Positions 1-7,042 of a DNA stretch of 64,000 bases are shown here, piece after piece. The stretch's first letter is position 1. Every line of letters starts with the position of its first letter. Location: the IMG/VR virus record IMGVR_UViG_3300005613_000004; one strand, written 5' to 3'. The notes beneath the pieces are model-generated. The model made no database searches, was not told where the DNA came from, and was given only the letters and a program-made list of their open reading frames with translations. This DNA comes from a virus. Position numbers and translations under genes: made by a program.

Positions 1-83
1 AGTTATGATGCCTGCCAATGATGAACTTATACGAATACACACTGAGGATAATAACGAAGCATCATAAGTTTATTATTTTTCTT

Positions 84-171
84 GCTCGTGAGACTTGGTA
101 GTCAGAGTCGTCTTATAAGCGATTTGCACCAGATTAGTGCCTTTGAGATGGTTCGAATCCATCCACGAGTA
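84..171 (+). tRNA. Atypical tRNA, anticodon TAT (Ile, AUA), long variable arm
   Basis: Acceptor GCTCGTG/CACGAGT; T-arm GATGG-TTCGAAT-CCATC; loop CT-TAT-AA at 112-118; V-arm GCAC/GTGC; reduced D-arm. Confidence 0.75.
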
Positions 172-172
172 T

Positions 173-246
173 TAGTGTAGATGTGATGTAAGGAAACACG
201 CCTCTTCGGAGAGTATTGCAGGTATCAAACCCTGTCATCTACACTA
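173..246 (+). ncRNA. tRNA-like structured RNA or pseudo-tRNA
   Basis: 11-bp terminal stem TAGTGTAGATG/CATCTACACTA; T-arm-like GCAGG-TATCAAAC-CCTGT; cUUCGg hairpin where the anticodon arm would be. Confidence 0.5.
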
Positions 247-272: not shown

Positions 273-731
273 GTGTATGTATACTTTCATATCACCATAA
301 TGTTTACTACTATTACTACATGTCAAGGTTGTGGATGCGACATTCTAAATGAAAGAGTGACGAAAGGGCGACTAAAAAAATGGTGTAGTAACTCTTGCAG
401 ACAAAAATGGAGGTATAAAAACGATCCTGTAATCAAAGACAGAAACACTTATACCGAACAAAAAGCAAGGGGATATTCCAATAAATGGAAAGCACTTGAA
501 TATAAAGGTGGTAAGTGTCAAACTTGTGGTGAAGATAGACCAGCAACTCTATGCTTTCATCACAGAGACCCGTCAAAAAAATCATTTAATCTTGATGGGA
601 GAACCTTTGCAAATAGGAAGTGGAAATTTGTTAAGGAGGAAGTTGATAAATGCGACCTTCTTTGCCATAACTGCCATCATATGCTACACTATGGGGACAG
701 TTGGGAAGAATTCCTAAACGAGCAGGTTTAG
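273..731 (+). CDS. HNH homing endonuclease with Zn-binding motifs
   Basis: CxxC pairs, CQTCG...LCFHHRDP...CDLLCHNCHHMLH; sits inside the tRNA cluster; start codon uncertain (GTG). Confidence 0.85.
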   Translation: MYVYFHITIMFTTITTCQGCGCDILNERVTKGRLKKWCSNSCRQKWRYKNDPVIKDRNTYTEQKARGYSNKWKALEYKGGKCQTCGEDRPATLCFHHRDPSKKSFNLDGRTFANRKWKFVKEEVDKCDLLCHNCHHMLHYGDSWEEFLNEQV

Positions 732-795
732 CAATCTGGTTGAATGCTCGGAACTCATAATTCCGCGAAGGGGAGTTCGATCCTCCCAACCTGCA
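722..795 (+). tRNA. tRNA with CAT anticodon (elongator Met or Ile2)
   Basis: GCAGGTT/AACCTGC acceptor; CGGAA-CTCATAA-TTCCG anticodon arm; TTCGA T-loop; lacks initiator GGG/CCC. Confidence 0.9.
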
Positions 796-796
796 C

Positions 797-4400: not shown

Positions 4401-7042
4401 GTCAAAATGTCGTTAACCTGTATCCACAACTTGATAGGGATAATGAAGATGACAATCCACTTTCTGCAAACTCTTATGCAAAAAGATCTCCTATTGGTGA
4501 AGTTGTAACTAATGATCTCAAGAAGAGTATTACTAGAGAATCTGTCGATTCTTTAATTACAAATTTTGGAATAGGTCTTGATATTTCTTCTGTCTCCAAT
4601 TCTGCTACAAGTGCAGATATTACATTTACAAGAAGACATGGATTTGCCGGTATTGTAACGGGTAATTATTCAGCACTTACGGCAAATTTTACTCCAGGAA
4701 CTTATCAAAATACAAAAATATTTAATAACTCTGGTTTAACACAATGGAATGGTGCAACAGCTACCATTGTTGTTGCTGGTGGTGGTAATATTAGTAATGT
4801 TACTATTGTTTCCAATGGTTCTGGTTATTCTGCAGGAACTTATTATCTTGATGAAAATATCATTGGCAATGGTAACAATAATCAATTCACTATTACTTCT
4901 TCAGGTATTTCAAGTTCTATAGGAGATGTTATTCAATTTACTGGAGCAGGAAAACCTGATACTTATCATCGTATTACTGCTGTAGGAAGTGATACTCAAA
5001 TTTCTATTGCAAAAACATCTGGTGATCCCACAATAGATAATTCTCAATATGCAATTTTAATTTCTCCAAGTGCTGAAATTGATACAAATACTTATACTTC
5101 AGATATTTCTACAATCACTACTATTTCTCCACACTCATTAAGTGCAGGAAATAGATTTAGAATTATTGATAGTAATAATAATAATCAAGGTGATTTTATT
5201 ATTGAAGAAGTTATTGGTATCAATACATTTACATATAAGTCAACAAATGACCTTGGGGCATTAAGCAATGGATACATTCTAAAGCATGGTCTTTCTGCAA
5301 ATAAAGGAATATCAGATTCTTCTAATGAAAATCTTGATTCAAGATCATTATATTTTTATGATAAAGAAACTCTTACTCTTAATGAATCAGTTACATCATC
5401 TGACACATCATTTAAAGTTTCGAGTGCTGGCATTGGAACTGCATTAAGATTTCCGTTAGGATCTTATATTCAGGTTGGTAGAGAGATTATGAGGGTGTCT
5501 TCCTCCTCATTAGGTGGTATCAATGATGATGAAATTAGTGTTATTCGTGGTGTTTTATCTACAAAAGCAGATTCATATGCGAACGGAGAATTACTTAAAA
5601 AAGTAAATATTCCTGCTATTGAATTCCGCAGACCATCTATCATTCGTGCTTCTGGACATACATTTGAATATCTTGGATATGGTCCTGGTAATTATTCAAC
5701 TGCACTTCCACAAGTACAGGATATTACTTTAACCGAAAGAGAAGAATTTTTAACGCAATCTCAAGAAAGGTCTGGTGGAATTGTTGTTTATACCGGTATG
5801 AATAACAAGGGTGATTTCTTTATCGGAAATCAGAAAAAGTCTTCTGCAACTGGTGAAGAAATTACATTTGATACTCCTATCCCAACAATAACTGGTGAAG
5901 ATCCATCAAGATTGAGTGCAGTTTTTGATGAAGTTACAATTAAGGAAAGATTAGTTGTAGAAGGTGGTTCTTCCAATCAAGTTCTTTCACAATTTGAAGG
6001 ACCTGTTAATTTTAGTTCAGAAGTGAGATTTTCTGATAATGTTAGAATTGTTGAAACTGAAGATTCTACAAGTTCAACATCAGGAGCACTTATAGTTTCT
6101 GGTGGTGTTGGTATTGGCAAAACACTTAATGTCGAAGGAAAAGCAAACATTGGAAACATAGGAATTGATACAAACACTATCAGTTCAACTAATACTAATG
6201 GAGACATCAATATTGATCCTATTGGTACGGGTGAAGTTAATATTTCCTCTAATACATCAATTACTGGAATTTTAAATATCGACAATGTACGTATTGATGG
6301 TAATACCATTGACGTAACGAACACTAATGGTGATTTAAATCTTAGTGGAAATGGAAGTGGTTCTGTTAATGTAACTAGTGACTTAGATATCACTGGTAGT
6401 TTGAATGTAACTAGTGACTTAGATATCACTGGGAATTTGGGTATAGGTGGTTCGGCTACAATAGGGAACGATAGAGACACGGATACTCACACAGTCAATG
6501 GTTCTTTTACTATCAATGGTCGTGGTAGTGGATTTGTAGTAATGGGACAGGATACTAATGGTGGTTCAATAGAAATTTTAAGATCAAGTGGATCTTTTAT
6601 AGACCTTAAAAGGTCCGAAAATGAAGATTATAATGTTAGATTAGATAATTTTACAAGTAGAGAACTAAAAATTAGTGCTGAAGGAAGTAATACTGCAGAA
6701 TTAAAAGTTACTGGAGATATTACTGCCTTTGCTTCTGATGAAAGATTAAAAACTGATATTAAACCTATAGAAAATGCTCTTACTAAGACATTATCTTTGA
6801 ATGGATTTACATATAAGTTTAATGAAATTGGTGAGAAACTCGGTTTTAACTCAAATATTACTTATTCTGGTGTATCTGCACAAGAAGTTCAGAAAGTGTT
6901 GCCTGAAGTAGTTAAACCGGCTCCTGTTGATGAGAATTACATTACAGTTCAATATGATAAAGTTATTCCACTCCTAATAGAAGCAATCAAGGAACTCTCT
7001 AATAAAGTAGAAAGACTTGAGAGGCAGTTGGAAGATAAATAA
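1496..7042 (+). CDS. Large tail fibre/virion protein with C-terminal intramolecular chaperone (peptidase S74-like)
   Basis: 1848 aa; MPLNKLDNFIKN N-terminus typical of cyanomyovirus fibres; SDERLKTDIKPIEN...coiled-coil C-terminus; TTG start after GAGGA. Confidence 0.85.
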   Translation: MPLNKLDNFIKNTEGRILYVSPADLDATDSIGNTGNSLARPFKTIQRALIESARFSYIKGNNNDETEKTTILLMPGEHEIDNRPGYFIFQSGSEARVTSPDGTVNNENASNYLPLTLNSNFDLNQSDNDLVKFNSINGGVIVPRGTSIVGLDLRKTKIRPKYVPNPTDNTPNSAIFRITGACYLWQFSIFDGNEFDTVYTQYDSSTIKSSPTFSHHKLTCFEYADGVNNVISNSVDLNLTDLEMYYAKLSIGYGTGSGNPARDIDDKFPSDPEGFAPQRPEFEIVGAFGSDSLTITDIESGSGGVPSNLITVTTELPHELNAGTPIRITGVSDNAYNISTKVVEVDDTNNNVFYYNILSDPSFITPQPSISGNERVTIETDTVSGASPYIFNISLRSVWGMNGMHGDGSKATGFRSMVVAQFTGVSLQKDDRAFVKYSPSNRDYSDNIEITPTFGADLSAESSSSGTAYHLDSQAIYRRGWDNTHIKVTNDAIMQIVSVFAIGYNNHFLVDTGGDASITNSNSNFGQLSLVSKGFKKEAFEKDNKAYLTHIIPPRAITSEEEDIDWLRIDIDKTLSVANNTRLYIDGFENESIKPPILSQGYRIGAAVNDKLFLDIDGTIRSANILMSNASGSSSFRKVSVSQPSSNIFTANGHGFTNREKVIIISDDGDYPENLDTNTVYYVIFVDANRFKLAGSEPEAENGEEITVYKGTNLSVISRVSDKESGDVAHPVQYDGDQWYINTDANSEIYQNLTSGISEPTFVRRIEDNRSLDEKIYKLRVVVPRQFTNGKTPEAGFIIQESSSTGAVDASEFTDTTITRDDVEFKRNPRFISTCSRSSSTVTVITELPHNLNVGDSVLIKNVTDSTINTGVGTFNKGYNGTYTVSTIDDDLTFKYTTTQTPGSFTNDTSVRDTDLPRFERNNLQSNLYVYRNEIINEYDDGQQSGVYHIYGLKSDEAIETEFTNLEYSQNVVNLYPQLDRDNEDDNPLSANSYAKRSPIGEVVTNDLKKSITRESVDSLITNFGIGLDISSVSNSATSADITFTRRHGFAGIVTGNYSALTANFTPGTYQNTKIFNNSGLTQWNGATATIVVAGGGNISNVTIVSNGSGYSAGTYYLDENIIGNGNNNQFTITSSGISSSIGDVIQFTGAGKPDTYHRITAVGSDTQISIAKTSGDPTIDNSQYAILISPSAEIDTNTYTSDISTITTISPHSLSAGNRFRIIDSNNNNQGDFIIEEVIGINTFTYKSTNDLGALSNGYILKHGLSANKGISDSSNENLDSRSLYFYDKETLTLNESVTSSDTSFKVSSAGIGTALRFPLGSYIQVGREIMRVSSSSLGGINDDEISVIRGVLSTKADSYANGELLKKVNIPAIEFRRPSIIRASGHTFEYLGYGPGNYSTALPQVQDITLTEREEFLTQSQERSGGIVVYTGMNNKGDFFIGNQKKSSATGEEITFDTPIPTITGEDPSRLSAVFDEVTIKERLVVEGGSSNQVLSQFEGPVNFSSEVRFSDNVRIVETEDSTSSTSGALIVSGGVGIGKTLNVEGKANIGNIGIDTNTISSTNTNGDINIDPIGTGEVNISSNTSITGILNIDNVRIDGNTIDVTNTNGDLNLSGNGSGSVNVTSDLDITGSLNVTSDLDITGNLGIGGSATIGNDRDTDTHTVNGSFTINGRGSGFVVMGQDTNGGSIEILRSSGSFIDLKRSENEDYNVRLDNFTSRELKISAEGSNTAELKVTGDITAFASDERLKTDIKPIENALTKTLSLNGFTYKFNEIGEKLGFNSNITYSGVSAQEVQKVLPEVVKPAPVDENYITVQYDKVIPLLIEAIKELSNKVERLERQLEDK
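6368..6432 (+). repeat. 36-bp-period intragenic duplication (NVTSDLDITG x2)
   Basis: Identical 29-mer AATGTAACTAGTGACTTAGATATCACTGG at 6368 and 6404. Confidence 0.95.

Follow-up and report, generated by a model that had tools for sequence, protein, structure and literature searches.

A structurally divergent phage tRNA family with a UAU anticodon, and its possible part in reading AUA codons

The tRNA cluster at the start of the window

The DNA analysed here (the window) is a 64,000-nt stretch of IMG/VR record IMGVR_UViG_3300005613_000004, from a T4-like cyanomyovirus with 34% GC whose nearest relative is S-SRM01, at 74% identity. Four tRNAs are called by ARAGORN at its start: Ile(tat) at 83-172, Met(cat) at 722-796, Val(tac) at 835-908, and Leu(taa) at 911-996. 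The first of these is our subject. An earlier reading of the letters alone (the sequence-only reading) had singled it out as a non-canonical tRNA with a UAU anticodon on a long-variable-arm body, and the ARAGORN call, tRNA-Ile(tat), agrees. In a local search of 1.3 kb with RF00005, 84-171 scores 30.4 bits, the gathering score being 29; a scan of the whole window with Rfam at gathering thresholds reports the three other window tRNAs and omits 84-171.

Two elements separate the UAU tRNA from the CAU tRNA (722-796, plus strand; found by both ARAGORN and Rfam) that follows it; in most relatives these two tRNAs abut. One is an HNH endonuclease ORF (300-731, plus strand; PHROG 2255, E = 9e-24), for which there was no Pfam match. 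The other is a tRNA-shaped RNA directly 3′ of the UAU tRNA (177-243, plus strand; 26.3 bits with the Rfam tRNA model), with an acceptor-like stem, D-like and T-like arms, and a tetraloop hairpin, CUC-UUCG-GAG, in place of the anticodon loop. An unannotated copy of this RNA, 93% identical, lies in the tRNA-Leu/tRNA-Thr interval of S-CAM9 (locus L003, 1501-1571).

Structure of the UAU tRNA

The minimum-energy fold of 84-171 is the cloverleaf that the sequence-only reading described (z = -2.9), and RNAalifold, run independently on 121 homologues, returned the identical structure. All of its parts lie on the plus strand. The 5′ strand of the acceptor stem (84-90, positions 1-7) begins with G84, which forms a G1.U72 wobble with U170; the 3′ strand (164-170) is followed by A171, the discriminator A73 (A in 121 of 121 homologues). 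A single A at 91 (A in 120 of 121) stands where canonical tRNAs have positions 8 and 9. The D-arm (92-103) is a 4-bp GACU/AGUC stem with a 4-nt UGGU loop, and an unpaired, position-26-like A at 104 (121 of 121) separates it from the anticodon stem. The anticodon arm (105-125) has a 7-bp stem (105-111/119-125) and a CUUAUAA loop (112-118), with UAU at 114-116. Directly 3′ of this stem, with no spacer, begins the V-arm (126-140), a 4-bp GCAC/GUGC stem (126-129/137-140) with a 7-nt CAGAUUA loop; a single-stranded linker (141-146; CUUUGA, the form in 60 of the 121 sequences, with (U)CUUGA in 51 and CUUUGG in 9) leads from it to the T-arm (147-163), a 5-bp stem with the loop UUCGAAU. After A73 the window copy has UUA, where 60 of the 121 genes encode CCA.

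The particulars on which the sequence-only reading had based its description (G1-U72, A73, the one-nucleotide connector, the GACT-TGGT-AGTC D-arm with its 4-nt loop, the 4-bp V-arm, and the 6-nt linker to the T-arm) are therefore all present. So is its extended, 7-bp anticodon stem, although only the inner four pairs of this covary; the sequence of the outer three (G.U, A-U, G.U) never varies.

A family in cyanophages and other large phages

Homologues were collected by two motif scans of IMG/VR, one keyed on the D-arm and the other on the anticodon/V-loop region, and from isolate phages. The resulting alignment, A2, has 121 distinct sequences (88 nt in 69, 89 nt in 51, and 90 nt in one), so that the family has at least 121 members; it is common to well over a hundred cyanophages and other large phages. 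Carriers include marine and freshwater cyanophages, a Sinorhizobium jumbo phage, and unknown large phages; one contig of the 89-nt subfamily has no resemblance to any cultured phage. The V stem of this subfamily reaches 5 bp through an inserted A that pairs with the first linker nucleotide.

Among isolates, BLAST found unannotated copies in Synechococcus phages S-SKS1 and S-SRM01, and compensatory changes in four stems could already be seen with the first isolate copies. The 469-kb Sinorhizobium phage Phosso has a copy that is annotated, as tRNA-Ile(tat); in the S-CBWM1 copy, 1 nt of the anticodon arm is deleted. Both of these phages also have HNH genes close to their UAU tRNA. An annotated tRNA-Asn(gtt) of S-CBWM1 (MG450654.1, L324; 10009-10097), at 86-89 nt, is long for an Asn tRNA, and the same cluster includes two annotated pseudo-tRNAs and a tmRNA-like call.

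S-CRM01 (HQ615693.1, L184) has an unannotated, divergent full copy at 1400-1489 (51.7 bits), followed at 1505-1550 by the 3′ fragment of a second copy. The D stem and the anticodon stem of the full copy are 5 bp each, and three bases ahead of its V-arm are unpaired; this copy retains the one-nucleotide connector, G1.U72, A73, UAU, and a V-loop of CCGAUUA. Its form suggests that the family is descended from a more ordinary class-II-like tRNA(UAU). Rearranged copies were seen on two IMG/VR contigs, L086 (about 4408-4536) and L113, where V-arm, T-arm, and acceptor 3′ strand are deleted and the 5′ half of the UAU tRNA, complete through the anticodon stem, is joined to a CAU tRNA.

In each complete phage genome a covariance model built from A2 (R1) finds one strong copy, scoring above 100 bits; the scores of ordinary class II tRNAs are just 25-42 bits. 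R1 found no copy in the related cyanophages ACG-2014f, S-8S55, P-HM1, and S-RIM2, and none in 151 genomes of the cyanobacterial phylum, where the best match had 35 bits against more than 100 for members. Scanning 596 Gb of genome contigs with the anticodon/V-loop motif, a loose pattern, gave 120 listed matches, all of them chance and none tRNA-like. As far as tested, then, the family is phage-specific. A literature search on phage and cyanophage UAU tRNAs with a long arm found no description of it. ARAGORN calls the family tRNA in 104 of 120 loci, and the published S-SRM01 annotation has 11 tRNAs by tRNAscan-SE 2.0, none of them at the position of the UAU tRNA (PMC8557907). Since annotations based on tRNAscan-SE omit the gene, cyanophage tRNA counts and the codon-adaptation analyses that use them are incomplete.

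The gene sits within phage tRNA arrays, often with ordinary tRNAs within 15 nt on both sides. In 53 of 120 loci the tRNA that follows downstream has a CAU anticodon, and in 29 the gap to it is no more than 15 nt. This partner has A3-U70 in the window copy and A3-U70 or U3-A70 among L001, L002, and about 50 other loci; tRNAMet and tRNAfMet usually have C3-G70. According to the rule of Silva et al. (2006; PMC1635315), A3/T70 is indicative of a lysidine-type tRNAIle2. The partner may thus be such a tRNA, in which case these phages would carry two AUA decoders side by side. A BLAST search found no tRNA similar to it in 61 genomes of the cyanobacterial phylum.

Covariation and invariant positions

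The fold is far beyond chance, and all five stems are backed by compensatory changes. In A2, 99% of the 3440 pair cells hold standard pairs and 20 of the 29 pairs have changes on both sides; none of 500 shuffles reaches any of these measures, and no register shift comes close either. Covarying pairs include all seven in the acceptor stem, the inner four in the anticodon stem, three in the V stem, and four of the five in the T stem, the first (147:163) among them; two D-stem pairs are compensated, GACU/AGUC being replaced by GAAC/GUUC in 9 sequences. The D-loop has a G18G19-type GG, and its third base faces the third T-loop base as G:C in 113 sequences and as A:U in 8, never unpaired, so that the G19:C56-type elbow contact itself covaries; in T-loops of AUCGUUA and AUCGUAA the 54:58 pair is swapped. 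With these two elbow contacts kept, the molecule folds as an L-shaped tRNA.

Other positions hardly vary. U33, the UAU anticodon, and A37 are found in 121 of 121 sequences, with C or U at position 32 and A38 in 108. G1.U72 is present in 116 and C2-G71 in 104. The outer anticodon-stem nucleotides, G-R-G and U-U-U, are invariant; the D-loop has 4 nt in 120 sequences and 5 nt in one, the connector is a single nucleotide in every one, and the linker follows the pattern C/U-U-U-(U)-G-A/G. The V-loop is CAGAUUA in 118 of 121, and its central GAU never varies. The invariance of the anticodon is not circular, since the 67 members retrieved through the D-arm motif alone all carry UAU (other matches to this motif were unrelated chance occurrences).

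Several other pairings were considered and rejected. The ARAGORN coordinates (83..172) imply an 8-bp acceptor stem, as in an 8/5 tRNASec-like or 8/4 allo-tRNA-like body, but the additional U83:A171 pair is not conserved: opposite the invariant A73, the -1 base is U in 92 sequences, A in 22, C in 4, and G in 3, so that 76% are paired and 29 of 121 unpaired, with no compensation. The acceptor stem is therefore 7 bp long and A73 is the discriminator; CCA directly after A73 in 60 genes fixes the same 3′ end. The first T-stem pair covaries (GC 84, CG 29, UA 7, AU 1), so the branch is 7/5, and 8/4 is excluded; the connector A is unable to pair with it. A helix between UCAGAG (102-107) and the linker CUUUGA (141-146) could pair in 93% of cells, but without real covariation; in the 89-nt subfamily it meets 50 mismatches, and it is incompatible with the D stem, which does covary. 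The complementarity could reflect an alternative conformer or be coincidence. Pairing between the V-loop and the T-loop was discarded as well: T-loop positions 59-60 vary, and the V-loop is fixed.

These data bear on one rival explanation of the element, that it is a decaying tRNA pseudogene or a chance cloverleaf. Its low general tRNA score (30.4 bits) and its absence from tRNAscan-SE-based annotations would fit, and clearly broken copies do exist (the L086/L113 fusions, the S-CBWM1 deletion, and the S-CRM01 3′ fragment). However, 121 distinct sequences from varied phages have constant length, invariant loops, and compensation in every stem, and this covariation refutes the idea, which we regard as scarcely credible. 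The sequence-only reading had held that a pseudogene would lack conserved V-arm and D-arm pairing among homologues; in the covariance alignment of the 121 homologues both are conserved, together with the rest of the structure. To judge from these patterns the gene is clearly functional and under selection, not a pseudogene.

Relation to known tRNA classes

General tRNA features are present: the 7/5 acceptor/T branch, the 54:58 and G19:C56 contacts, and a 7-nt anticodon loop with Y32, U33, and R37. The canonical pair of connectors and a D-loop of at least 7 nt (positions 14, 15, and 21) are absent, and the 8-14 and 15-48 contacts are impossible in this body. Nor does the family fit class II of the Leu/Ser/Tyr type, given a V-arm without a spacer, 5-6 unpaired nt 3′ of it, and a D-loop of only 4 nt. 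The sequence-only reading had confined long V-arms in bacteria to Leu, Ser, Tyr, and Sec tRNAs; this list is incomplete, as both allo-tRNAs (PMC5389517) and nematode nev-tRNAs (PMC3333845) combine them with UAU.

Allo-tRNAs (Mukai et al., 2017; PMC5389517) were compared with the family by their published description. In both, the extra arm is long, the D tetraloop is like that of tRNASec, and the anticodon stem is lengthened; both are bacterial or phage tRNA-like genes overlooked by general tRNA finders; UAU is the commonest allo-tRNA anticodon (PMC5389517). However, the allo-tRNA branch is 8/4 or 9/3 (a 12-bp acceptor branch) rather than 7/5, position 73 is mostly G or U rather than A with G1.U72, and the D stem is long rather than 4 bp. 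The phage family also differs in its invariant 7-nt extra-arm loop and 5-6-nt trailing linker, and is found in phage tRNA arrays, whereas allo-tRNAs lie beside toxin-antitoxin and transposon genes of Acidobacteria.

Bacterial tRNASec (selC) likewise has a 4-nt UGGU-type D-loop, a long extra arm, and a longer anticodon helix, and the 8-14 and 15-48 core contacts are impossible in it too, but it is 8/5, with a 6-bp D stem, UCA, and G73, where the family is 7/5, with a 4-bp D stem, UAU, and A73. The nematode nev-tRNAIle(UAU) (PMC3333845, PMC4300185) is class-II-like, has UAU, is conserved within its lineage, and raises the same question of Ile or Leu. The nev-tRNAs are eukaryotic, derived from tRNALeu, and weakly expressed, with a normal tRNALeu body in place of the reduced core and distinct extra arm seen here; they are charged with Leu in vitro, and mistranslation in vivo was not detectable (PMC3333845, PMC4300185).

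With Mycoplasma mobile tRNAIle2(UAU) (PMC3575796) the family would share bacterial-type reading of AUA, independent of TilS, by an unmodified-type UAU. That tRNA has a canonical class I body and works with a co-adapted IleRS (Arg for Trp) and ribosome, whereas a phage tRNA must use host enzymes, which have kept the Trp in those sampled. The canonical tRNAIle2 of bacteria and phages (CAU, converted to lysidine) also has AUA as its target, and can also be a phage-supplied tRNA for a host-rare codon, but needs TilS and has a class I body. The most apt description of the family is a new structural variant of tRNA that, within what was tested, is confined to phages.

AUA codons in the phage proteins

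AUA occurs 327 times in 38 ORFs of the window (17,304 codons), a frequency of 18.9 per 1000, and makes up 22% of Ile codons; the Val(UAC) and Leu(UAA) tRNAs of the cluster likewise match abundant A-ending codons. AUA usage showed no difference between carrier contigs and unrelated viral contigs (11-18 vs. about 20 per 1000).

The meaning of AUA was examined by aligning the window proteins to the syntenic regions of five relatives (four non-carriers and one carrier) and tallying the residues opposite each codon. Opposite AUA the aligned residues are I 0.39, V 0.20, and L 0.12, compared with I 0.42, V 0.20, and L 0.12 opposite AUU and I 0.38, V 0.22, and L 0.14 opposite AUC; Leu codons align with L at 0.50-0.55, and Ser codons with S at 0.33-0.38. 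AUA does not differ significantly from AUU/AUC (p = 0.09 and 0.73) but is very different from Leu codons (p about 1e-57). Ile is the best-fitting meaning; Leu fits worse by 189 log-likelihood units with the non-carriers and by 141 with the carrier. Ser is found opposite 4.4% of AUA codons and 2.1% of AUU/AUC codons, far below the expectation for Ser decoding. Since the residues at AUA are Ile-like, AUA is an Ile codon in this phage, and any delivery of Leu or Ser at these 1.9% of residues has left no mark on codon placement.

What the tRNA might carry

The sequence-only reading offered three possibilities: that the tRNA carries Ile without needing TilS, that it is mischarged with Leu, or that it is a decoy for host anticodon nucleases. 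The evidence leans to the first (an invariant anticodon loop and A73, location in tRNA arrays, encoded CCA, and the placement of AUA), and an Ile-accepting AUA decoder for which TilS is not needed is the reading to which we give somewhat better than an even chance. It would be an elongator tRNA of a phage-specific structural class, L-shaped, with a normal 7/5 branch and D/T elbow but a reduced core, its anticodon helix lengthened by G.U/A-U/G.U and its extra hairpin adjoining the 3′ strand of that helix. Host RNase P and 3′ processing would excise it from the phage array, with CCA encoded or added; IleRS would charge it by way of A35, U36, (t6)A37, A38, and A73; and it would deliver Ile at the AUA codons common in a 34%-GC phage, supplementing host tRNAIle2 without lysidine formation by TilS. 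Expression, processing, charging with Ile, any modification of U34, and acceptance by EF-Tu and the ribosome are all steps that we infer.

In E. coli, IleRS identity rests on A73 and on A35, U36, A37, and A38 of the anticodon loop (PMC9976931). This core set is present in the family (A73, A35, U36, and A37 in 121 of 121; A38 in 108 of 121), and it counts for Ile that the determinants are exactly the invariant positions. The other elements of E. coli tRNAIle are G34 or lysidine-34, D-loop G16/D20/D21, C4-G69, U12-A23, and C29-G41 (PMC9976931); the family has U34, lacks the D-loop positions, and has A-U at 4-69 in 95 of 121 and C-G at 12-23 in 112 of 121. The absence of the minor determinants (G16/D20/D21, U12-A23, C29-G41) counts against Ile. 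So does the enzyme itself: E. coli IleRS charges UAU poorly, with a wobble-stacking Trp as the cause (W905, in the R-C-W motif), while the M. mobile IleRS, which uses tRNAIle(UAU), has Arg at this site (PMC3575796), and the five IleRS that were sampled, from small genomes of the cyanobacterial phylum, all retain the R-C-W motif. Also to be set against this reading are the misreading of AUG by unmodified UAU on E. coli ribosomes (PMC3575796), the inactivity in an E. coli reporter of six allo-tRNA(UAU) species converted to CUA amber suppressors (PMC5389517), and the invariance of the V-loop CAGAUUA, for which an Ile decoder gives no account.

Charging by the host LeuRS, which takes no account of the anticodon and relies on A73 and the elbow, would instead put Leu at AUA, as in the nematode nev-tRNAIle(UAU), charged only with Leu in vitro (PMC3333845). 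The core elements for E. coli LeuRS are kept (the invariant A73, the D-loop GG, G19:C56, and 54:58), so that A73 and an intact elbow come near its minimal identity set, and tRNALeu truncated of its anticodon and V arms is still leucylated (PMC9976931). Apart from family members, what R1 matches best in each phage is tRNA-Leu(UAA) or some other class II tRNA of the ordinary kind, and the commonest acceptor strand, GCGAGUG, differs at one position from the GCGAGUA of this phage's own tRNA-Leu. However, A15-U48 and A20a, required by E. coli LeuRS, are absent, and are impossible with a 4-nt D-loop and a 1-nt connector; invariance of the whole anticodon loop is what recognition by IleRS would lead one to expect; and Leu at 1.9% of all residues would be costly. 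AUA stands where Ile is expected, and Leu is no more frequent there than at AUU/AUC (L 0.12 both); the model fit is worse by the 141-189 log-likelihood units given above. The Leu option is thus biochemically possible, through A73 and the D/T elbow, but leaves no trace in codon placement, and we think it distinctly unlikely. Serylation through the long extra arm, giving Ser at AUA, has its own precedent in the active allo-tRNAs, some of which, with Leu anticodons, insert Ser in E. coli (PMC5389517); the long arm and the tRNASec/allo-like D tetraloop point the same way, as does the slight excess of Ser opposite AUA over AUU/AUC (4.4% vs. 2.1%). Against it, position 73 is A rather than G, G1.U72 replaces G1-C72, C2-G71 (104 of 121) is an antideterminant for E. 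coli SerRS (PMC9976931), the V stem is just 4-5 bp with a 5-6-nt trailing linker, and AUA-aligned residues are 4% Ser compared with 33-38% at true Ser codons. This is very improbable.

The molecule might also have no part in elongation at all. As a tRNA mimic it could titrate or recruit some host factor that binds tRNAIle, or absorb a tRNA-targeting defence, as has been proposed for allo-tRNA(UAU) (PMC5389517). In its favour, the core is very unlike that of canonical tRNAs; the fixed sequence of the V-loop hints at a partner that binds it specifically; poor charging of UAU is predicted for host-type IleRS; the six amber-converted allo-tRNA(UAU) species, linked to toxin-antitoxin loci, were inactive in the E. 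coli reporter (PMC5389517); and the RNA immediately downstream (177-243) is itself tRNA-like and anticodon-less. Against it stand a textbook decoding loop (Y32, U33, A37, and in most members A38), an anticodon that matches a codon heavily used by the phage, an acceptor end like that of a chargeable tRNA (A73, with CCA in half of the genes), and a place among ordinary tRNA arrays. The decoy proposed in the sequence-only reading finds no support, and no nuclease or defence system directed at a UAU anticodon is known to us. On balance a role as mimic seems unlikely, if less so than misdelivery of Leu.

The V-loop allows a further proposal within an Ile-accepting tRNA, namely that the extra hairpin is a second, synthetase-facing anticodon mimic: IleRS would read or need GAU there, while the ribosome reads UAU on hairpin 1. 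The V-loop is always C-N-GAU-N-A, and GAU, the major tRNAIle anticodon, is well recognised by Trp-type IleRS. With a 5-bp stem and a 7-nt loop, the hairpin of the 89-nt subfamily matches an anticodon arm exactly in size, and the 5 nt that come after it resemble a class I variable loop. The idea that the hairpin helps IleRS is motivated by the GAU in this loop, by G1.U72, by the GAG/UUU stem extension, and by the UCAGAG/linker complementarity; if true, it would allow lysidine-free decoding of AUA by a phage tRNA although the host IleRS rejects UAU. We nevertheless consider it improbable. Use of hairpin 2 as the decoding arm was rejected: its loop has A or C at position 33 and U or C at 37, and deletion of hairpin 1 in silico leaves no ARAGORN tRNA, whereas deletion of hairpin 2 still leaves tRNA-Ile(tat).

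Implications

AUA is alone in the bacterial code in that reading it normally calls for a dedicated and essential enzyme, TilS. If the tRNA does accept Ile and read AUA, it would be a third natural solution to this problem, beside lysidine and the adaptation of IleRS and ribosome in Mycoplasma, and would do so with host enzymes that have not adapted to it. This is directly testable in carriers that are in culture (S-SRM01, S-SKS1, and Sinorhizobium phage Phosso). It would also be a new natural tRNA architecture that ribosomes may accept, with a 7/5 branch, a one-nucleotide connector, a D tetraloop, and an adjoining extra arm, and as such would be relevant to the limits of tRNA structure and to the engineering of orthogonal tRNAs.
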